Source: Candidatus Altarchaeum sp.
GTDB taxonomy: Archaea > Altiarchaeota > Altiarchaeia > Altiarchaeales > Altiarchaeaceae
Assembly (NCBI GenBank): GCA_018260615.1
Contig: JAGWDQ010000139.1
Location: forward strand, 1 to 18,865
Direction: 5' to 3'
Length of the DNA stretch: 18,865 nucleotides
The translations under genes were made by a program, and so were the position numbers. Shown in pieces: positions 328 through 14,371 of the stretch (position 1 is the stretch's first letter; every line of letters begins with the position of its first letter). The notes beneath the pieces were generated by a model. It worked only from the letters and a program-made list of their open reading frames with translations, made no database searches and was not told the origin of the DNA.

Positions 328-1122
328 TTATCTGAGCCGTAATTTTAAAAAAACAAGTGCAAAGACCAGAATAAAGGCAAACAAAATATTTGTAAAATGC
401 GATAACGGCGAAATTTTTTCAACCTTGTTGATTGTCTTAATATCAACCTTTTCTTTATTTTCAAATTTGTTTAAAAATTTTTCAATTCCTTCTTTATGCC
501 CCGCCCCTACAACTGCAACAATATTCGCATTTGGAAATCTTGACTGCAACGAATACAAATTCATCGCCATATATATGTCTCTCTCCTCAACCAAACCATT
601 GTAAAATTTCGGAAATTTTTTCATAATGTTTGTTATTTTATTTAAATTTTTCGGGTCCAGTATGCTGTTTATTCCGTCTTCAAAGTCAATATCTTTTGTC
701 ATTTTTGGCGAAAGCGTCAGCATCTTAATTTTTTCATTGAGGGGTAAATTTAGTATCCGGTTCATAGTTATGTTTATATTTCTGTCAATCAGAATAACAT
801 TTGCTTTTATTTCTCTTGCACATAAAATCGCCTCTCTCATTTCTGCACCCGGAAAGACATTTAATTTTTTCCCAATCTCTCTTTGAAACATCGCCAGCAG
901 ATACTGAATAAATCCTGCGGGACCTGAAAATAAATCGCGGGCAGAATAATGCTCTTGTTCAAAATTTACCTCAAAATTATTTTCCTCTAAAATTTCATAC
1001 CTCTTCCTGTCTAATTCAACTGCAACAAAATTTGGTTTAATTGCGAGGATTGTTTCCCTGACTTCATTTACACTTTTTTGTAATACATGTCCCGTGCCTA
1101 TTATTTTTATCATTGTTTCCAT
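328..1122 (-). CDS. TraB/GumN-family (pheromone shutdown-like) protein with C-terminal hydrophobic tail
   Basis: 264-aa ORF with IIGTGH, VAVELD, PGAEM..A, LIDR, LVEERD and VVGAGHKEGI motifs typical of the TraB family. Confidence 0.85.
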   Translation of the reverse strand: METMIKIIGTGHVLQKSVNEVRETILAIKPNFVAVELDRKRYEILEENNFEVNFEQEHYSARDLFSGPAGFIQYLLAMFQREIGKKLNVFPGAEMREAILCAREIKANVILIDRNINITMNRILNLPLNEKIKMLTLSPKMTKDIDFEDGINSILDPKNLNKITNIMKKFPKFYNGLVEERDIYMAMNLYSLQSRFPNANIVAVVGAGHKEGIEKFLNKFENKEKVDIKTINKVEKISPLSHFTNILFAFILVFALVFLKLRLR

Positions 1123-5922: not shown

Positions 5923-5996
5923 TAAAACAACACAAATCAACAGGAAAATCAGGAGGTTAGATGAATGGGAAAATTTAACGGAAAAATTTCAAATTT

Positions 5997-6041
5997 TGGA
6001 CTGGTCGGGATTTGAACCCGAAGCCTCTGCCGTGCGAGGGC
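5997..6041 (-). pseudogene. tRNA-Ala 3' fragment (positions 29-73), att-like copy 1
   Basis: 45/45 nt identical to 6540-6584. Confidence 0.93.
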
Positions 6042-6413
6042 TACGATGAACTTTTTTCTTTTAAAAAAGCTCACACGAAGCCACAAAGCCACAGAGTATT
6101 TTAAAATCAAGAGATTTTTAAAGATTGAAAATTCTCAAAGAATTTTCAGTATTTAAAAATTTCGTAAATTTTAAAAGATTGAAACCTCACAGGTTTCAGT
6201 ATATTTCTCCTTTGTGTCCCTGTGTCTTCGTGTGAGGATCATAAAACGAACTTTCCTGTACGATAAAAAAAGAAAAAATCATCTCGCTCTTGCTCGGAGA
6301 TTTAAAAATTTAGAGAATTTTTAAATCACCTTACTTCGTTCGGAGATTTTAGAAGCAAGTTCTAAAACACTCCGAAAAAAGAAAAAAGTAAACATTGGAA
6401 TAAATTTCAAATT
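6042..6413. mobile_element. Composite non-coding element: ends of the small Y-R-R element with nested inverted-repeat unit and REP-like hairpins
   Basis: Starts TACGATGAACTTTTTTCTTTTA and ends AAACACTCCGAAAAAAGAAAAAAGTAAAC..AAATT as in 6459-6539; interior contains 6070-6236 and REP-like units. Confidence 0.65.
6070..6236. mobile_element. MITE-like unit with 27-bp imperfect terminal inverted repeats
   Basis: 6070-6096 versus reverse complement of 6210-6236: 22/27 match, outer 11 bp (CTCACACGAAG) perfect; two hairpins inside; no clear TSD. Confidence 0.55.
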
Positions 6414-6458
6414 TGGACTGGTCGGGATTTGAACCCGAAGCCTCTGCCGTGCGAGGGC
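6414..6458 (-). pseudogene. tRNA-Ala 3' fragment (positions 29-73), att-like copy 2
   Basis: 45/45 nt identical to 6540-6584 and 5997-6041. Confidence 0.93.
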
Positions 6459-6539
6459 TACGATGAACTTTTTTCTTTTAGGAAAAGAAAAAACACTCCG
6501 AAAAAAGAAAAAAGTAAACCTTTGAAGAAATTTTAAATT
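6459..6539. mobile_element. Small non-coding element (ATGAAC-Y tract-R tract-CACTCCG-R tract-AAAC-tail), copy A
   Basis: Homologous to 13636-13729; 13-bp inverted repeat ACTTTTTTCTTTT (6467-6479) / AAAAGAAAAAAGT (6503-6515). Mobility is inferred. Confidence 0.65.
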
Positions 6540-6611
6540 TGGACTGGTCGGGATTTGAACCCGAAGCCTCTGCCGTGCGAGGGCAGCGATCTACCGTTGA
6601 TCTACCAGCCC
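6540..6611 (-). tRNA. tRNA-Ala, anticodon CGC, intronless, CCA not encoded
   Basis: Full cloverleaf: acceptor GGGCTGG/CCAGTCC with G3:U70, D stem GATC/GATC, anticodon stem CTGCC/GGCAG with loop CTCGCAC, T arm TCGGG-TTCAAAT-CCCGA, discriminator A73. Confidence 0.97.
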
Positions 6612-7054
6612 GAAAATGCCGCACCCTGTTCGTCTCTTTCATTAACCATAACCTCTAATCCGCGTATATTTTTAAAATTTTTTAAAATTTCCTTTAATTC
6701 ATTGTGCAAAAGATATGCCAGATTTTCACAGGTTACATTGCCAATCGGAACAATAACACAATCTTCTTTCGGGAACGAATATTTTTTTGAATTTGCGGTA
6801 AAATTTAAATTTCCGCCATCGTCCTTGTAGTTTATTGAATTCGGAAGCAGCATTTTATGGTCAAATTTGTTCAGCAGTTCGTCGGTAATGTTTTTTAATA
6901 TTGTAAAGTCAATAACCCAGCCGTGTTCTTCCAGTTCACCTTCAACAATTACTTTTACCTTCCAGTTATGTCCGTGAATTCTTCCGCATTTCTCGTGTCC
7001 TATTAAAAAATGTGCGGATGAAAAAGTTTTTACGATTGAAATTTTTACGCTCAT
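6602..7054 (-). CDS. queD: 6-carboxy-5,6,7,8-tetrahydropterin synthase (QueD/PTPS family)
   Basis: FSSAHFL, CGRIHGHNW, FDHKMLL and TCENLA motifs; 150 aa. Confidence 0.92.
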   Translation of the reverse strand: MSVKISIVKTFSSAHFLIGHEKCGRIHGHNWKVKVIVEGELEEHGWVIDFTILKNITDELLNKFDHKMLLPNSINYKDDGGNLNFTANSKKYSFPKEDCVIVPIGNVTCENLAYLLHNELKEILKNFKNIRGLEVMVNERDEQGAAFSGW

Positions 7055-7233
7055 CTTATAGTTATATTATGATTTACAATTAAATTTACAATTAATTTTA
7101 TCCTTAAAAATTAGTTTTGAAACAAATTTATAATAAAATTTCTATGTGCTGACGAAATGCATTAAGTTGTGAGGGAATGCTAAAAATTGAAGGCGACCTG
7201 CAAATTCATCAGAATTTGGATATGTTCGAACGA

Positions 7234-7520
7234 TTTTCAAACAAGTTTGAAAATACACGATTTCAAAAATGAAGTTTTTGAATACTGAAAATCTTTGAGA
7301 TTTTCAATCTTATTTTTAAATCACCTCATTATCATTCGGAGATTTTAAAAACTCTGTTTTTAAAATCGCAGAGATTTAAAAATCTCCGAACGATTTCCAA
7401 AATCGCAGAGATTTTGAAAATACACGAACGAAGTGAGCGTAAGTGAGGTGACAAAATGCGAGCATTTTGTAAAGACACTAACAACAGTGAGTGGAACGAC
7501 AGAGAGCGTAAGTGAAAACA
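7234..7520. repeat. Second mosaic cluster of REP-like palindromes
   Basis: TTTTCAAA-CAAG-TTTGAAAA-TACACGA; reversed AAGAT-TGAAA hairpin at 7281-7311; 12-bp inverted repeat TTCGGAGATTTT (7335-7346) / AAAATCTCCGAA (7379-7390); ACACGAACGAAGTGAG at 7422-7437 identical to 174-189. Confidence 0.8.
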
Positions 7521-7566
7521 AATTTATGCAAATATATCCGAACAATTTAAATATATAAACATCAAA

Positions 7567-8766
7567 ATGGAATTAAAACTTAAATCCATGCTTATCAAAA
7601 ATTTCAAGAGTTTAAAGGACACAAAAATAGAACTTACTGACTTCAATGTTCTTGTCGGGGTTAACGGGAGCGGGAAAAGCAACATTGTTGAAGTTTTCAG
7701 GTTTTTGAAGCATATAAATCAGGAAGGAATTATAAACCCTTTTATTAAATACGGGGGCTATAAAAACATCGTCTGGAAAAAGAATGAAGAATTACCTGTT
7801 GTATTTGAGTTAACATTCGAAAATAAAAAGAAGGAAACTTTGAGTTATGAACTCGCAATAAGCGGGTTCGGGGACGTTTTTAAGTTAGAAAAAGAATCAA
7901 TAATCTCAACTGATTTTTGGCTTGTAAATAACGGCAAAGATCTGATTTTCGAGTACAAAGGGCAAAAAATTAGTAAAGAAATTAAAGGCATGAGGAAAGA
8001 ATTGTTTGAAAATAGGGTGCTACTCTCCTCCAGTATGGTTCCTTGGGTCTTCAGTTCCCTTGTTGATTTAAAAAGCAAAGATGTGGATGCAATAATGAAT
8101 ACAATCGTTTCAATCTCAGATGTTATTCTCACACCCACGCACAATTTCATTCCGTTAAATATGAAATCTCCTGCAAAATTTGAATCGTCTGAAAGAAAAT
8201 TTTTACGCACATCTCAAGAGATTAGTTCATTGAATTATGACGGAAGCAACCTTCAAATGATTCTGTATGAGTTATTTTCCAAAAACAAAAGTGAATGGCC
8301 AAAAGAAGTTACTAACCGGTTAAAAATTTTATTTCCTGATATTGAAAATATGGTGCCTATCCCAACACCAGAAGGAAAGGTTATGCTTGAGGTAGTTGAA
8401 AATGGAACTAACTTTATTCCTCAGTCTCTTTCAGACGGTTTCTTTAAGATTATGGCAATTCTTGCTTTGAGTTTTGGAAAAACAGCACACAATATATTGG
8501 TGATAGATGAAATAGAAAACAGTTTGCACCCTGAGGCGATTGAAATTTTAATTGACGCACTTAAAAGTTCAAAAAAGCAGGTTATAATCACAACGCACTC
8601 GCCGATTGTATTGAATGTGTGCAAAGTTGAAGACATTTTGTTTGTTAAAAAAGAGGTTGATGAAACAAAGGTCTCGAGAGTGGAGAATGCGGAAAAATTA
8701 AAAAAAGATTTAGAAAAAGCAGGAATATCAACCGGTGAGGGCTGGTTGTATAATGTTTTAGAATGA
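7567..8766 (+). CDS. ABC/SMC-like ATPase (AAA_15/AAA_21-like), putative defence-system ATPase
   Basis: N-terminal IKNFKS, Walker A GVNGSGKS, signature LSDG, Walker B/D-loop ILVIDEIENSLHP, H-loop ITTHS. Confidence 0.9.
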   Translation: MELKLKSMLIKNFKSLKDTKIELTDFNVLVGVNGSGKSNIVEVFRFLKHINQEGIINPFIKYGGYKNIVWKKNEELPVVFELTFENKKKETLSYELAISGFGDVFKLEKESIISTDFWLVNNGKDLIFEYKGQKISKEIKGMRKELFENRVLLSSSMVPWVFSSLVDLKSKDVDAIMNTIVSISDVILTPTHNFIPLNMKSPAKFESSERKFLRTSQEISSLNYDGSNLQMILYELFSKNKSEWPKEVTNRLKILFPDIENMVPIPTPEGKVMLEVVENGTNFIPQSLSDGFFKIMAILALSFGKTAHNILVIDEIENSLHPEAIEILIDALKSSKKQVIITTHSPIVLNVCKVEDILFVKKEVDETKVSRVENAEKLKKDLEKAGISTGEGWLYNVLE

Positions 8767-9236
8767 GAAACTGTAAATCATTTTATATTTTGACTGAGGA
8801 CAGGTATGGTGTTAAATTTTTTGATCGCCTGCTTAAAAGAATTGAAAGAGAGTTGGGAATTAAAATTTCACAGCACAGGTGCATACAATCGACAATGGGC
8901 GATGGAGTCATGGACAGTAAAATTGTTCAACTTGCAAGAACAGGATGGATAAGATATGATTGTGTGATTTTCGTTCGGGACGGAGACAGGAAAAGAAAGG
9001 AAATATACGAAAAATTAAATAAAAAAATTTCTGACTTGCCAAAGGAAAATAATAAACACGCGGTGATTATTGTCTTTGAAAAAGCAATAGAATCCGATTG
9101 GATTGAAAAAGGAACCCGCGAAAAAATTGATTACAAACTAAAAGCAGAACTTCCGGATTATGCAGATAAACTGGATATAAACCAGCTCAGAGAAGATGTT
9201 AATTTCAAAAAATTTGTTTCAGCGGTGGATCCTTAA
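8763..9236 (+). CDS. Small TOPRIM-like protein coupled to the ATPase
   Basis: ATGA overlap with the ATPase stop; ILTED (catalytic Glu after a beta strand) and FVRDGD (DxD) motifs; 157 aa. Fold is inferred from motifs. Confidence 0.7.
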   Translation: MRNCKSFYILTEDRYGVKFFDRLLKRIERELGIKISQHRCIQSTMGDGVMDSKIVQLARTGWIRYDCVIFVRDGDRKRKEIYEKLNKKISDLPKENNKHAVIIVFEKAIESDWIEKGTREKIDYKLKAELPDYADKLDINQLREDVNFKKFVSAVDP

Positions 9237-9361
9237 CAAAAATTAGGCGGTGCCTGCACTGACTGGAGAATTCAAAGAGCAATGTTTTTGATGTTTTAAA
9301 TTTTCTTGTTTTCATAATTACTTTTCACTTTTAAATTTATTTTTGTGGTTTTATAATAAAA

Positions 9362-11014
9362 ATGTTCTGGGCAGATCAGTTAGCAAATCAGACAGTCGTC
9401 AGGGTTGAAAAGGAATTTGCAGAAGGAAAAAATAAAGAGAAAATTTTAACAATAAGATGCGGTCAAACACCATCCGGGGGAAAACACATCGGAAATTTAA
9501 ACGATGTTATCAGAGCATACTTTGTTTATAAATCAGTAAAGGAAAAGATTGCTAACAAAGAGTGGAACGGAAATGTAAAATTTATTCACACAAGCGATGA
9601 CAGAGACCCGCTGAAGGACATTCCAACCAGGATTATGGATTTGGATAGCAGATGGCATGAAACAAAAAATTTAGACCTTGAAAAATTTTTGGGAATGCCT
9701 TTATGCAGAGTTCCGGATCCTTTTGGCTGCTGTCCGTCGTGGAGCGAACACTTTACAAAGGTATGGGTGGAAGGAATAAAAGCAATCGGAATTGAGGATA
9801 TGGAAATTTATTACAACGATAATTTATACAAGCAGGGAAAATTTGAGCCATACATAAAAACAATTTTTGAAAACAGGGAAAAAGTCGGCGAAATAGTTAC
9901 AAAATTTCAGCAGACAAAACATGAAAATTACATTCCGTTTGATGCGATTTGTCCGAACTGCGGACGACTGGCAAATATAGATGGCTTTGATTTGAACAAC
10001 AGGACGGTAAAATTTAAATGCGGCGGAAAGGAAATAAAAAAGAAAAAAACAGAGGGCTGCGGATATGAAGGAGAAGCAGGTATTGCAGAAGGAAAATTGC
10101 AGTGGAGGTATGAATGGCCTGCACAATGGGGAATTTTTAATACAACCTACGAGCCATTCGGAAAAGACCACTTTGAAGGGAGCTGGAAGAGCGGACAGGT
10201 CATTGCGAGAGAAATTTACAACATTGAGCCGCCAATCCCGTTTGTTTATGAATTTTTCCTTGTAAACGGAGAAAAGATGTCGGCAAGTAAAGGAAATGTT
10301 TATGTTACGCAGGATATTTTAAAAATTTTAGAGCCGGAAGTTTTGCTTTACTTTTACACAAAAAAGCCCGAGAAGCAGAGGGATTTATCTCTGGCGGAAA
10401 TTTTTCGTCTGGTTGATGAATTTGATACCGTTGAGAAAATTTATTACGGTGTTGAAGAGGGAAGGACAGAACACGAAACAGAGGATGCAAAAAGAATGTA
10501 TGACATAAGCACGAACAAAAAATTTTCAGTCCCGCCGAAACGACTGCCTTATGTTTTTGCTTCAACATTAGCACAGATTTACGGGGAAAAGGCAACTGAA
10601 AAAGTAAAAGAGATGAATAAAAAGGCAGGACAAATATTGTATGATGAGGACATGGCAAAAATACGGCTTGAAAAGGCAGGCAACTGGGCAGATTTATACA
10701 TTCCGGAAACAGAGCGGATTAGAATAATTGATGATGAAGAGGCACAAAAAATTGAGCTCGGGCTTGATGATAAGGTTAAGGAATTATTAAACAAATTTGC
10801 AGAAATGTCTACACAAAATTTAAGCGGAAAAGAAATAACAATAAGAATAGGGGAATTGATAAAGGTCTCGGGGGATAAAGAGTTATCCGTAAAATTTTAT
10901 AAGGCATGTTATATGATGTTGTTTGGCAAAGAGAAAGGCCCGAAATTAGCGGGTTTTATTGATACATTAGATAAGGAGTTTATAATTAAGAGATTTAAAA
11001 GCGGGGAAAAATAG
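9362..11014 (+). CDS. lysS: Class I lysyl-tRNA synthetase
   Basis: TPSGGKHIGN, DDRDPL, CPNCG, GKLQWRYEWPAQW, EPFGKDH, KMSASKGN, GPKLAGFI. Confidence 0.97.
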   Translation: MFWADQLANQTVVRVEKEFAEGKNKEKILTIRCGQTPSGGKHIGNLNDVIRAYFVYKSVKEKIANKEWNGNVKFIHTSDDRDPLKDIPTRIMDLDSRWHETKNLDLEKFLGMPLCRVPDPFGCCPSWSEHFTKVWVEGIKAIGIEDMEIYYNDNLYKQGKFEPYIKTIFENREKVGEIVTKFQQTKHENYIPFDAICPNCGRLANIDGFDLNNRTVKFKCGGKEIKKKKTEGCGYEGEAGIAEGKLQWRYEWPAQWGIFNTTYEPFGKDHFEGSWKSGQVIAREIYNIEPPIPFVYEFFLVNGEKMSASKGNVYVTQDILKILEPEVLLYFYTKKPEKQRDLSLAEIFRLVDEFDTVEKIYYGVEEGRTEHETEDAKRMYDISTNKKFSVPPKRLPYVFASTLAQIYGEKATEKVKEMNKKAGQILYDEDMAKIRLEKAGNWADLYIPETERIRIIDDEEAQKIELGLDDKVKELLNKFAEMSTQNLSGKEITIRIGELIKVSGDKELSVKFYKACYMMLFGKEKGPKLAGFIDTLDKEFIIKRFKSGEK

Positions 11015-11359
11015 AAAAATTTAAATTTAGAAGTTTAATTTAGTAGAGTTGTTGCAAATTAAAAATTTTGCAGATGATTAAAGATAAAAATTGATAAAAT
11101 TTAAGGTGAAAGAATTATTTTGCAACATGTCTATTATTTATCAAACCGAAGACGGAAAAACTCGCGTTGAAGTTCGATTTGAACATGAAAATGTATGGTT
11201 AACGCAAAAGCTCATGGCAGAACTTTTTGGAACAACAAAACAAAATGTTAGTTTGCATCTGCAAAACATATTTAAGGACAAAGAATTAAGTCAGGATTCA
11301 CTTGTAAAGGATTTCTTGACAACTGCCTCGGAGGGGTAAAAATAGAAAAATTTAAATTT
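11007..11359. repeat. 22-bp direct repeat (AAAAATAGAAAAATTTAAATTT) flanking the rhuM-like insert
   Basis: Copies at 11007-11028 (contains the lysS stop) and 11338-11359, each preceded by GGGG or GGGGT. Confidence 0.75.
11127..11339 (+). pseudogene. 5' fragment of a RhuM-family / Fic-associated DNA-binding protein gene
   Basis: IIYQTEDGKTRVEVRFEHENVWLTQKLMAELFGTTKQNVSLHLQNIF...KDFLTTA matches the N-terminus of RhuM-like proteins as I recall it; it stops after ~70 aa. ATG at 11127 preferred. Confidence 0.8.
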
Positions 11360-11437
11360 TAATATTATTGTAAATCTAATTATTATAAATTTTAATATTT
11401 TAATTTTAATTAGTTAGATAAAATTTATTACTTTCAA

Positions 11438-12070
11438 ATGGATATAATTGCAAAACTCATCGTAAGAGGATTTATTCAGGGTGTAGGGTATAGGGCATAT
11501 GTTAAGCAGCTAGCATATAGATTAAAAATCAGAGGAAATGTTAAAAATTTACCTGACGGCGGCGTTGAAATATATTGTAATGCTCCAAATGAGGTAATTT
11601 ATAATAAATTTAAAGAAAAATTAAAAGAAGGTTCCGGAGAAGTCGAGGAAATAGAAGAATATTTTGAAGGTGATAAAAAGTTTGGAATGCTCCCAAAAGA
11701 TTGGAGGGGGTTTAATATTTTAAGAGATGAAACAAGCAGCATTGAAGAAACACTAGATTTTGTTGTTCTCGGAGGTAGAGAAATAATAAATAAAATAGAC
11801 AATCTTGGAAATAAAATAGACAATCTTGGAAATAAAATAGACAATCTCGGAAATAAAATAGACAATCTTACATCTGTAACAACGGATAATTTTAACATAC
11901 TTGACACAAAATATGGTCTAATTTCTCAAAACATGAATAAAATATTGGAAGAACTCATAAAAGAAAGGGAAGAAACAAAAAAAGAATTGATAAAAGAAAG
12001 AGAGGAGTCAAGGAAGTCAATAGAACGACTTGTTGAAGCAATATTGAAAGGCAAAGATAAAAAAATTTAA
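11438..12070 (+). CDS. acyP: Acylphosphatase domain with C-terminal coiled-coil extension
   Basis: GFIQGVGYR and GNVKNLPDGGVE motifs in the first ~50 aa; ~115-aa helical tail. Confidence 0.85.
   Translation: MDIIAKLIVRGFIQGVGYRAYVKQLAYRLKIRGNVKNLPDGGVEIYCNAPNEVIYNKFKEKLKEGSGEVEEIEEYFEGDKKFGMLPKDWRGFNILRDETSSIEETLDFVVLGGREIINKIDNLGNKIDNLGNKIDNLGNKIDNLTSVTTDNFNILDTKYGLISQNMNKILEELIKEREETKKELIKEREESRKSIERLVEAILKGKDKKI
11789..11869 (+). repeat. In-frame 21-bp tandem repeat (NKIDNLG), about 3.9 copies
   Basis: AATAAAATAGACAATCT(T/C)GGA at 11789, 11810 and 11831, partial copy at 11852. Confidence 0.95.
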
Positions 12071-12126
12071 AATAAATTTTTAATGTCAAAATAAGCATCC
12101 AACGTAAAATTTATCATAATTGTAAA

Positions 12127-12423
12127 ATGGTTTATGGTTCGCATGGGTTTTTAAGGAGATCAAGAAACACATTAAAAGGAAAACCGCGGGATAGGGGAAA
12201 AATAAGTATAAGAAAGTACTTTCAGGAATTTGCAGTCGGAGAAACAGCAGGAATAAGTATAGATGTAAAATACCGGAACATTCCGTATCCGAAATTTAAC
12301 GGCAAGCTTGGAAAAATTACGGGACAGCAGGGAAGAGCATACTACATCAACATAAATGATAACGGAAGAAAAAAGGATGTTCTTGTCAGTCCGGAGCATT
12401 TGCAGAAGATTAACAAGGGCTAA
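12127..12423 (+). CDS. rpl21e: 50S ribosomal protein eL21
   Basis: GSHGFLRRSRNTLK, PYPKFNGKLG, QQGRAY, VSPEHL. Confidence 0.95.
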   Translation: MVYGSHGFLRRSRNTLKGKPRDRGKISIRKYFQEFAVGETAGISIDVKYRNIPYPKFNGKLGKITGQQGRAYYININDNGRKKDVLVSPEHLQKINKG

Positions 12424-12440
12424 ATTTATATTAAGTTAAG

Positions 12441-12785
12441 ATGAAAATAATAGAAAAGAAATTAACAACTCTTTCTCATGTAAGGGAAATTTTACTGAAA
12501 AGGGAAAAAGAAGCGGTAGACGGTGAGCCGATGACCGACGAACAAAAAAAACTGCTGAATTATACGGGCAAATTTTCAACATTGTCTGCAAAAGATGCGG
12601 AGGACTTACAAAAGAAGTTAACTGGCTTAAATTTGGGACTTTCGGGGGCTCAAATCGTAAAAATTACAGATATACTTCCAAAAAATACTGATGAAGTAAG
12701 AGCCATATTTTCAAAGGATGAAAAATTTGCACATAATACCGATGAGCTCAAACAGATTCTTGAGTCCATTGCCCAATATGTATAA
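12441..12785 (+). CDS. rpoF: RNA polymerase subunit Rpo4 (F)
   Basis: TLSHVREIL, EQKKLLNY, KITDILPKNTDEVRAIF; conserved position after rpl21e. Confidence 0.9.
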   Translation: MKIIEKKLTTLSHVREILLKREKEAVDGEPMTDEQKKLLNYTGKFSTLSAKDAEDLQKKLTGLNLGLSGAQIVKITDILPKNTDEVRAIFSKDEKFAHNTDELKQILESIAQYV

Positions 12786-12864
12786 ATTTTCCTTTAAATA
12801 AAAACCGGATAGAAAAATTAAACATTAGAAAAATTCAGGGCAAAATTTAATTTATATTTTTAAA

Positions 12865-13506
12865 ATGGAAACCAGGAGAGATAACTATGTAAGGGTTTTG
12901 GACTTAAAGGAAGTTAGCAAAGGTAATGCGCCCTTTAAGACAATTCCTGCTGTTCAGGTAATCGGAGAAGAATATTATACTCTGCTTGAAGTTGCTCCGA
13001 AAGACAATGTAAAATTAGAGGTTAATGAAAGAGTATATATTGGTGATGAAAAAAGAGACAAAGTAGATCATATTGTCCGAAGAATAACATACAACGACCT
13101 TACAAATAGTGCAAAAAACGCCTTAATTGAGGTAATTTCACAGATTGTAATAAACAGGGAAAAATATTTTATTCAGTTTATGAATACAATCAGTCCTCTG
13201 AATGTCCGAATGCACTCTCTGGAAACATTTCCGGGTATTGGAAAAAAACTGACATCTGAAATTATAAATGAAAGAAACATTAAACCGTTTGATGACTTCA
13301 AAGATCTTCAAAAAAGAGTTAAAAGTGTCGGTGATATTTCAGTTCACATTGCAGAGAAAATTGTTGAAGAATTAAAAGGAGAAAGCACGCATTATTTTTT
13401 TATAGATTCAGAAAACAGGGGCAATGTTGCCCGAGAACAAACAAGGACGGAAAGAGGCAGAAGAGAAGGATATGGTGATCGATCGGGATACAGAAGAAAT
13501 AGATAA
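12865..13506 (+). CDS. DUF655 / COG1491 predicted RNA-binding protein
   Basis: VQVIGEEYYTLLEV, RMHSLETFPGIGKK (HhH), PFDDFKDLQKRV; conserved position after rpoF; Arg/Gly-rich tail. Confidence 0.88.
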   Translation: METRRDNYVRVLDLKEVSKGNAPFKTIPAVQVIGEEYYTLLEVAPKDNVKLEVNERVYIGDEKRDKVDHIVRRITYNDLTNSAKNALIEVISQIVINREKYFIQFMNTISPLNVRMHSLETFPGIGKKLTSEIINERNIKPFDDFKDLQKRVKSVGDISVHIAEKIVEELKGESTHYFFIDSENRGNVAREQTRTERGRREGYGDRSGYRRNR

Positions 13507-13523
13507 AACATAAAAGTTAAAAG

Positions 13524-13733
13524 ATGAATCAAATATTTGACGGGGTCTATAGAGAAGGCAGGAATATAGCAACAAAAAATAAATTTAAGGGAAATACAGT
13601 ATATGGTGAAAAAATTATATCTGAAAAAGGTAATGGAATGAACTTTTCTTTCTTTGGAAAAGAAAGAAAACACTCTGAAAAGAAAGAAAAAACAAACAAT
13701 GGAAAAATTTATAAACTTTATTTAAAAGGATGA
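13524..13733 (+). pseudogene. Duplicated fibrillarin 5' end (37 codons) reading through the inserted element, 69-aa chimeric ORF
   Basis: 13524-13635 identical to 13730-13841 (112 bp). Confidence 0.9.
13636..13729. mobile_element. Small non-coding element (ATGAAC-Y tract-R tract-CACTCTG-R tract-AAAC-tail), copy B
   Basis: Same architecture as 6459-6539. Mobility is inferred. Confidence 0.65.
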
Positions 13734-14371
13734 ATCAAATATTTGACGGGGTCTATAGAGAAGGCAGGAATATAGCAACAAAAAATAAATTTAAGGGAAA
13801 TACAGTATATGGTGAAAAAATTATATCTGAAAAAGGTAATGAATACCGGCTATGGGATCCCGAAAGAAGCAAATTAGCAGCGGCAATACAAAACGGACTA
13901 AGAAACTGGACAATAAAAAAGGACTATAATGTTCTCTATCTGGGCGCATCTTCCGGAACAACGCCAAGTCATGTGGCGGATATATCAAATCTGGTTTTTG
14001 CCGTTGAAATTTCAAAAAGAATGATGCGAAATCTTATACAGGTCTCTGAAATAAGAACAAATATAATTCCTGTTTTGGCAAGTGCATTAAAGCCGGAAAC
14101 ATATATGGACAGAATACTGTCTGTTGATTTCATTTATCAGGATGTTGCACAGCCGAATCAGGCGGAAATTTTAAACAAAAACGCTGAAATTTTTAAGCCG
14201 AAATTTGCCATGCTCGCAATAAAAGCAAGAAGTATAGATGTTCTAAAAAATCCGTCCCAGATATTTAAAAGAGAAATAGCAAAACTGAAAAATTTTGAGG
14301 TTCTTGAAATTATAAAACTGTATCCTTATGACAAGGACCATGTTCTGGTGAATTTGAGATATAAGGGCTAA
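13730..14371 (+). CDS. flpA: Fibrillarin (box C/D 2'-O-methyltransferase)
   Basis: VYGE, EYRLWDPERSKLAA, VLYLGASSGTTPSHVAD, IYQDVAQPNQAEI, LYPYDKDH. Confidence 0.96.
   Translation: MNQIFDGVYREGRNIATKNKFKGNTVYGEKIISEKGNEYRLWDPERSKLAAAIQNGLRNWTIKKDYNVLYLGASSGTTPSHVADISNLVFAVEISKRMMRNLIQVSEIRTNIIPVLASALKPETYMDRILSVDFIYQDVAQPNQAEILNKNAEIFKPKFAMLAIKARSIDVLKNPSQIFKREIAKLKNFEVLEIIKLYPYDKDHVLVNLRYKG

Follow-up and report, generated by a model that had tools for sequence, protein, structure and literature searches.

A Small Mirror-Repeat Element Lies Between Long Duplications of Gene Ends in Altiarchaeum

Results

Two Genes of the Window Carry the Element Between Duplicates

The stretch of DNA analyzed here (the window; 18,865 nt) is contig C139 of an archaeal Altiarchaeum genome, G000 (2.2 Mb, 148 contigs, 33% G+C). 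At two of its genes, fibrillarin and tRNA-Ala, a non-coding element of roughly 80–95 nt sits between long duplicates of host sequence, written X below, and the last duplicate is part of an intact gene. Three congeneric genomes, G001, G002, and G003, were used for comparison; all four carriers are incomplete metagenome-assembled genomes (MAGs), 65–87% complete. A sequence-only reading of the window had singled out two copies of the element, A (6459–6539) and B, and a cargo-expanded version (6042–6413). All three are located as claimed, except that the end of copy B moves from 13729 to 13721, the last 8 nt belonging to the duplicate.

The fibrillarin site is laid out as follows:

13517..13635, plus strand: duplicate X1, 7 nt upstream and the first 112 coding nt of fibrillarin, native upstream context kept
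13636..13721, plus strand: element copy B, 86 nt between the duplicates
13636–13643, head of copy B; 13644–13655, pyrimidine tract (T4CT3CT3); 13659–13670, purine tract
13671–13677, loop 2 of copy B; 13678–13692, mirror purine tract; 13693–13697, CAAAC; 13698–13721, tail
13722..13841, plus strand: duplicate X2, running into the intact fibrillarin gene (13730–14371; Pfam Fibrillarin, E 3.8e-75)
13524..13733, plus strand: stub open reading frame (ORF) of 69 aa, made of 37 fibrillarin residues and element-encoded Lys-rich residues

The two fibrillarin duplicates agree at 119/120 positions. The stub ORF gives a weak Fibrillarin match over residues 5–37, and its stop codon TGA and the ATG with which the intact gene begins run together as ATGA, because the second duplicate has an extra G. 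Translational coupling of stub and intact gene was rejected as a general rule: It is seen at fibrillarin only and not at the other copies.

The tRNA-Ala site holds two element copies in tandem:

5955..5996, plus strand: tail-like AT-rich stretch before the first tRNA fragment, unlike the native tRNA flank at the G001 empty site
5997..6041, minus strand: duplicate X copy 1, the 3' part of tRNA-Ala from anticodon stem to 3' end, a non-functional fragment
6042..6413, plus strand: cargo-expanded element copy, a 372-nt insert (head and pyrimidine tract 6046–6062; loop 2, mirror purine tract, and tail 6364–6413)
6414..6458, minus strand: duplicate X copy 2, tRNA-Ala 3' part
6459..6539, plus strand: element copy A, an 81-nt insert
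6459–6462, filler of copy A; 6463–6468, head; 6469–6479, pyrimidine tract (T6CT4); 6480–6482, loop
6483–6493, purine tract of copy A (A4GA6); 6494–6500, loop 2; 6501–6513, mirror purine tract (A6GA6)
6514–6519, GTAAAC of copy A; 6520–6539, AT-rich tail
6540..6611, minus strand: intact tRNA-Ala(CGC), called by ARAGORN and Rfam; its 3' 45 nt (6540–6584) are duplicate X copy 3

The AT-rich stretch at 5955..5996 is possibly the remnant of a third, decayed copy, an assignment we regard as uncertain. An Rfam search returned tRNA as its sole match. The lengths first given for X, 45 nt of tRNA and 112 nt of fibrillarin coding sequence, stand as far as the genes go, and each duplicate reaches beyond its gene: by about 6 nt of native flank past the tRNA 3' end, as comparison with the empty site in G001 shows, and by the 7 nt upstream of fibrillarin. 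Since it includes flank past the 3' end, the tRNA-Ala duplicate was copied from DNA and not from mature tRNA.

The interior of the cargo-expanded copy (6063–6363) consists of nested copies of other high-copy small repeat families. G003 contains over 100 matches to its unit of about 110 nt at 6095–6206, frequently arranged in tandem, and an inverted repeat with 41-nt arms spans 6056–6096 and 6210–6250. A module from this cargo that ends in GAAC plus a TTTCC-type word recurs beside tRNA 3' ends.

The Same Sites Are Empty in Congeners

The fibrillarin site is empty in G001, G002, and G003, each of which has a single gene start, to which the two halves of the window query align with an overlap of 115–119 nt (BLAST); compared with these congeners, the sequence preceding X1 is native fibrillarin upstream DNA. 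At the tRNA-Ala site, G001 (contig C55) has the TPR gene, about 25 nt, and tRNA-Ala, with no fragments. Two further insertions of G000 are likewise empty elsewhere, C20:5086 in relatives and C86:2715 in all three congeners, and in the reciprocal case two insertions filled in G001 are empty in G000. At the loci compared, the insert is missing from the orthologous site and both repeats align to one copy. These empty sites, at fibrillarin, tRNA-Ala, and four further loci, bear out the earlier proposal of a non-autonomous element whose insertion copies a long part of the neighboring gene without disrupting it. A single X and an empty site in congeners thus mark the fibrillarin and tRNA-Ala inserts, on sequence comparison, as recent insertions.

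An assembly artefact, in which the repeat made the assembler loop through X, is hardly credible. The apparent assembler k is 55, judged from 55-nt overlaps beside 100-N scaffold gaps, and the fibrillarin duplicate (120 nt, 99% identical) exceeds it, so unit numbers are uncertain in arrays whose duplicates are longer than this k. Against an artefact, the X/element junction sequences have to be present in reads, diverged duplicates at many loci (63/71, 38/44, and 70/89) cannot be collapsed, and four other sites are filled, with diverged duplicates, in two independently assembled genomes. Diverged duplicates and filled sites common to independent assemblies rule out the misassembly that the sequence-only reading had itself named as a risk. 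Separately, 100-N runs flanked by identical 55-nt stretches (for example C114:3517-3726, C126:11656-11865, and C129:11838-12047) are scaffold joins, and such joins give false "direct repeats" in repeat screens.

The Inserts Form One Family Confined to a Single Genus

The inserts are one family of non-coding, non-autonomous elements of about 80–95 nt. A profile built from ten copies finds about 34 matches in G000 and more in the three congeners. Flanking direct repeats (score at least 50, ending no more than 12 nt from the element head) accompany 28/30 structure-parsed copies versus 0.9% of 1487 random positions; the genome-wide check suggested at the outset thus went against the possibility that most copies lack duplications. 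Duplicates measure 38–181 nt across copies, long and of differing length as the two window sites had indicated, and their 79–100% identity implies insertion that has long been ongoing and continued until recently. Duplicate and element are repeated in tandem at tRNA-Ala, in three units at C70:22209-22532, and on C53 and C87.

The tRNA-Ala arrangement invites another explanation, in which the tRNA repeat is an attachment-site core left by tRNA-targeting integrative elements. A 45-nt duplicate from anticodon stem to tRNA 3' end is a classic archaeal and bacterial integrase attachment site, tandem arrays occur at such sites, and the same caveat was raised by Furuta, Abe and Kobayashi 2010 (PMC2853133). 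We give this explanation very little weight. The family is present at no fewer than 25 distinct and unrelated duplicates, most of them protein-gene starts, which already contradicts it; the inserts are merely 80–95 nt and have a common structured core; and no integrase domain was found among the 20 main window ORFs scanned against Pfam.

Cargo in element copies is nested copies of other small repeats, and it can differ between orthologs: the copy on G001:C51 is without the cargo that its ortholog on G000:C2 carries. Gene-carrying versions were not found, no head/tail pair bounding a gene in G000. A small palindromic repeat with a conserved flank occurs in the window at 113–194 and 7357–7442 (53 nt, 89% identical between the sites), and this module is the loop-2 cargo of several element copies. 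Transduction of donor flank was considered and dropped, the extra 90 nt behind the element on G001:C29 being another repeat family.

Within everything searched, the family is confined to four genomes of one Altiarchaeum genus. An exact-pattern scan of GTDB representative genomes with the element 3' part returned only Altiarchaeales archaeon A3 and nothing beyond the genus, with matches outside Altiarchaeales taken as chance without being read. The same part gave 19 matches in JGI metagenome contigs, all of them chance, and 75 chance matches with no model match in IMG/VR. Applied to 61 genomes of the phylum, a purine/pyrimidine pattern proved too rigid, recovering 1 of the family's own copies, and is uninformative on spread.

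The Core Tracts Are in the Register of a Possible Triplex

The element reads, in order: head, pyrimidine tract (9–13 nt), loop (0–3 nt), Watson–Crick purine complement, loop 2 (7 nt), second purine tract, GTAAAC, and an AT-rich tail of 17–35 nt that resembles an archaeal TATA region and in some copies includes fillers. The head is GAAC, preceded in some copies by GGAAAT.

The co-variation of the three tracts seen between copies A and B extends across the family, with at least seven patterns. Pairing of the pyrimidine tract with a portion of either purine tract is possible (ViennaRNA, RNAalifold), as had been proposed, but the second purine tract is a mirror of the first and not a copy of it. 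With the comparison anchored at loop 2, the second tract starting directly after the 7-nt loop and usually with an additional AA, it mirrors the first exactly (and so is the pyrimidine tract's parallel complement) in 9/12 asymmetric types, whereas the direct copy (the reverse complement of the pyrimidine tract) is contained in only 4/12. Watson–Crick folds of the element, the only kind that ViennaRNA models, have z-scores of -1.5 to -2.8.

Mirror symmetry cannot arise by copying, and an antiparallel purine third strand needs it, which favors a triplex register over hairpins. The three-block order for such a third strand, which characterizes intrastrand triplex motif repeats, is present in the sequence. 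Between the two structures first offered for the core, the tract geometry fits an intrastrand purine-motif triplex, not a second hairpin arm or alternative hairpins.

Insertions Follow an Orientation Rule at Gene Ends

In the element's own orientation, the head always borders the left duplicate at its right end, and the tail borders the right duplicate at its left end. By manual tally, the tail-side duplicate end lies just outside a gene end, with the gene body on the tail side, in about 25 of 27 classifiable copies, and the head joins a point 40–120 nt inside the gene. Since the tail falls outside the gene end and the head within the gene, the tail side always keeps a complete copy of the gene. 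Most tail-side duplicate ends fall 0–33 nt before a start codon; others precede two tRNA-Leu genes by 3 nt, follow tRNA-Ala by about 6 nt, and, on C100, follow the stop codon of an argB-like gene by 4 nt. The same kind of tally puts targets at about 23 gene starts versus 2–3 gene ends (tRNA-Ala, C100, and possibly a truncated C87 copy). A tighter rule, with the outer end at the gene boundary, is weakened by five older copies that have 54–71 nt of upstream DNA inside the duplicate.

The two junctions differ in character. Heads are heterogeneous: About seven copies of different tract types start with GGAAAT before GAAC, and others start 2–6 nt later or inside the element (truncated). In most GGAAAT-head copies, the target just beyond the junction is AAAT or AAT. 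At the other end, where the empty allele is available for comparison, tail and native sequence overlap by 5–7 nt: AAATT at tRNA-Ala, TTAAAAG at fibrillarin, and AAAGA at locus L026. A tail-like word, AAATTTAAA, has 210 matches in the 40 nt before start codons versus 26 in the first 30 coding nt (1177 ORFs), and the tail's core word also occurs upstream of several tRNA genes. A promoter function for the tail is doubtful, its spacing to the start codon being too variable for such a claim.

These junctions and the polarity bear on cut-and-paste or replicative transposition, in which a transposase would make long, variable staggered cuts and purifying selection would then spare just those insertions whose duplicate covers a gene end. 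Several observations suit it: The family is defined and its core varies rather little, each of the two duplicates is complete, unequal crossing-over can generate tandem arrays, and selection has to act in any case. We nevertheless consider it decidedly unlikely. Terminal inverted repeats are absent, both element ends are imprecise, no copy carries a gene, and duplicates of 38–181 nt contrast with the fixed short duplications of known transposases. Selection alone, moreover, predicts similar numbers of 5'- and 3'-end targets in both orientations, and the tallies above are strongly skewed in both respects. Two kinds of mobile element were rejected on similar grounds: an IS200/IS605-type insertion sequence (palindrome-associated transposable element, PATE), because there is one internal hairpin only, no conserved target word before the head, and long duplications; and a miniature inverted-repeat transposable element (MITE), because head and tail are not reverse complements, the sole inverted repeat is internal, and the duplication is not short and fixed.

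The polarity can also be read as import by recombination. In a donor strain the element would already stand immediately upstream of a gene; a fragment or circle with the element and the gene start would enter a naive genome, and homologous recombination within the gene, together with an illegitimate joint at the element head (homology-facilitated illegitimate recombination, HFIR, or a Campbell-type event), would make the duplicate. This accounts for the polarity, the tail being contiguous with the intact gene, and for variable duplicate lengths and a blurred head junction. The tail-side duplicate at L026 is the farther from the G000 ortholog (about 10 vs 5 differences in 44 nt, by hand count), two tRNA-Leu paralogs have element, tail, and duplicate in common, and Furuta et al. 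tie long target duplications to naturally competent species (PMC2853133). We hold import to be unlikely. It needs precursor alleles with the element directly upstream and no duplicate, and essentially none are seen; the window duplicates are 99–100% identical and congeners differ by 5–13%, so the donor would have to be of the same population; a circle of 130–200 bp is too small for double-stranded DNA; and the arrival of the element at new genes is left unexplained.

CRISPR Repeats Occur in the Same Layout

At 1076–1279 of the window, three perfect 68-nt units lie at a TraB-like gene (328–1122, minus strand). Read in the orientation of that gene, each unit is a copy of the genuine 29-nt CRISPR repeat of G000 followed by 39 nt (1 nt plus the gene's first 38 nt), giving (CRISPR repeat + gene start) three times and ending in the intact TraB-like gene. 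The bona fide CRISPR array, at C73:6058-6477, has 7 repeats of 29 nt and unique spacers of 35–37 nt. Solitary CRISPR repeats between duplicated gene starts recur in G000 at C79:40548, C130:1455, C98:21987, C87:24626, C92:705, and C2:11677 and on C88, where at C88:30887-31085 three copies of one gene start have the triplex element in one gap and repeat–spacer–repeat in the other. The element is thus not alone in the X–insert–X style. As the source of the element's insertions, off-target CRISPR spacer integration (neo-CRISPR) was rejected on size: duplicates of 38–181 nt and inserts of 80–95 nt versus a 29-nt repeat and 35–37-nt spacers.

Other Features of the Window

The window carries housekeeping genes: GluRS, dCTP deaminase, shikimate kinase, TPR protein, tRNA-Ala, PTPS, class I LysRS, L21e, RpoF, DUF655, fibrillarin, NMD3, and HisI. 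Between PTPS and LysRS, at 7567–9236, lie a gene for an AAA_21 (AbiEii-type) ATPase and a 157-aa ORF without clear family, possibly a defence gene pair inserted amid the housekeeping genes. An ORF with an N-terminal acylphosphatase domain contains four tandem 21-nt units (7-aa repeats) at 11786–11873.

Discussion

A Tail-First Copy-In Reading

We favor, at a probability of roughly 0.55, a tail-first, microhomology-primed copy-in of the target-primed or template-switch type, with DNA the likelier template. Where AT-rich intergenic DNA is nicked, the 3' end at the nick would pair with the AT-rich tail by microhomology, and synthesis would copy the element from tail towards head. The head would then be joined imprecisely, again by microhomology, some tens of nucleotides away, and fill-in would duplicate the interval between nick and head joint. 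The mirror-repeat core most likely folds as an intrastrand purine-motif triplex on single-stranded DNA, where it could mark or stall the template and so act as a stall or recognition signal. An event starting in intergenic DNA would leave both neighboring genes intact; gene preservation would follow from the copy-in geometry, not from a dedicated function. Copy-in from a nick fits the combination of a constant 3' side, a ragged 5' side, tails in similar AT-rich DNA, junction overlaps, long duplications, and polarity.

The choice of template bears on a related reading, a SINE (short interspersed nuclear element)-like retroelement whose RNA would be reverse-transcribed at a nicked AT-rich target (target-primed reverse transcription). 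Non-long-terminal-repeat (non-LTR) retrotransposons and SINEs insert by target priming, with a 3' tail at an AT-rich nick, variable 5' ends, 5' microhomology, and variable duplications, and the geometry of the Altiarchaeum element matches theirs: Its duplications vary, its 5' ends are variable or truncated, its AT-rich 3' tail is anchored at AT-rich targets, and the 5' junction has microhomology. We know of no SINE-type retroposition in prokaryotes, and we see this reading as a long shot. The Altiarchaeum duplications are much longer than is usual for SINEs; no promoter is evident upstream of the head; fillers occur at the 3' junction and not at the 5' junction; and the tRNA-Ala duplicate, reaching about 6 nt past the mature tRNA end, was copied from DNA. 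Reverse transcriptase (PF00078, RVT_1) was found in G002 only and not in G000, G001, or G003, an absence that is no proof in MAGs of this completeness. Its detection in only one of four carrier genomes favors a DNA template. That single RVT_1 among the four congeners (G002:C124:2411-3010, L083) has a 345-aa open frame.

Several points weigh against the copy-in reading. The reading comes with neither an enzyme for the insertion nor a donor copy for either window insertion, and triplex formation is a prediction from sequence. Two copies break the polarity rule. At C136:3254-3502, element plus cargo (111 nt in all) lies in reverse orientation between duplicates of codons 2–24 of a HAM1-like gene; the reading frame is open throughout element and cargo, and the insertion may be translated in frame. 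The other copy, C87:38279-38321, has only the 3' half of the element, which stands in place of the final codons of an argB-like gene. Upstream DNA makes up most of the duplicate in several older copies, so its outer end does not always sit close to the gene end. Filler nucleotides intervene at some tail joints, 6 nt of them at fibrillarin and 20 nt at L026; microhomologies of 3–7 nt are weak evidence in DNA of 67% AT, and the distance from tail to start codon ranges from about 10 to more than 38 nt. Purifying selection alone might yield part of the gene-end bias.

A broader but more doubtful extension takes in the solitary CRISPR repeats, and we put it forward tentatively: Altiarchaeum may have a general, transposase-independent insertion of DNA at gene ends by copy-in with duplication of the gene end, the triplex element being its top passenger and solitary CRISPR repeats and gene cassettes being placed at gene starts likewise. 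What defines the mobile element would then be its DNA fold and AT-rich priming tail, not an encoded or borrowed enzyme.

If the copy-in reading is true, the family offers a many-copy, small, recently active model for insertion with long target duplication, and it ties that phenomenon to a non-B DNA fold. The element would colonize a compact genome without breaking genes, including operons of essential genes, L21e–RpoF–DUF655–fibrillarin among them. Its insertions could rewire expression through the stubs of gene starts, the TATA-like sequences, and the terminator-like T tracts that they newly introduce, and partial tRNA genes and short N-terminal stub ORFs in Altiarchaeum annotations would be explained.

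Comparison with Known Systems

No described transposon family is known to duplicate 45–120 nt of a gene end while keeping the gene whole, and, in line with the earlier suggestion that the element is undescribed, the literature searched holds no published description of it or of the combination. Ca. Altiarchaeum hamiconexum is reported to have the highest MITE density among archaea surveyed (PMC11602168). Like MITEs, the element is small, non-coding, multicopy, and polymorphic between close relatives; unlike them, it has no terminal inverted repeats and no short fixed duplication, and no related autonomous insertion sequence was found, the search for gene-enclosing head/tail pairs covering G000.

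Its core is closest to the bacterial intrastrand triplex motif repeats known as PIT elements, BoxC, or TMECO (Holder et al. 2015, PMC4666352). The order of pyrimidine stem, short loop, purine stem, short loop, and second purine stem is the same, and those repeats are also multicopy and linked with genome rearrangement. TMECO differs in being G/C-rich and bacterial, with 9-nt stems and a 3-nt second loop (PMC4666352), and target duplication is not reported for PIT/TMECO, the word "duplication" being missing from PMC4666352. A/T-rich triplex motifs were treated there largely as chance (PMC4666352); the Altiarchaeum stems are A/T-rich too, but they co-vary in at least seven patterns and have a conserved head and tail.

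The nearest parallel for the duplications is insertion with long target duplication, published for bacterial restriction-modification genes (Nobusato et al. 2000; Furuta, Abe and Kobayashi 2010, PMC2853133). First recognized 25 years ago, the phenomenon is documented by a few restriction-modification islands; its mechanism is not known, tandem amplification through the repeats has been proposed for the published cases, and no archaeal case survived the screen of Furuta et al. (PMC2853133). As there, the insert is missing in a relative, the repeats are longer than 30 bp and variable, the empty site has a single copy, and no transposase or integrase is linked (PMC2853133). The published inserts are kilobase-sized restriction-modification units, whereas those of Altiarchaeum, at 80–95 nt, are non-coding and multicopy and contain no restriction or modification genes. 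The Altiarchaeum element further stands apart in its structured core, its strict orientation, and an outer end anchored at gene ends.

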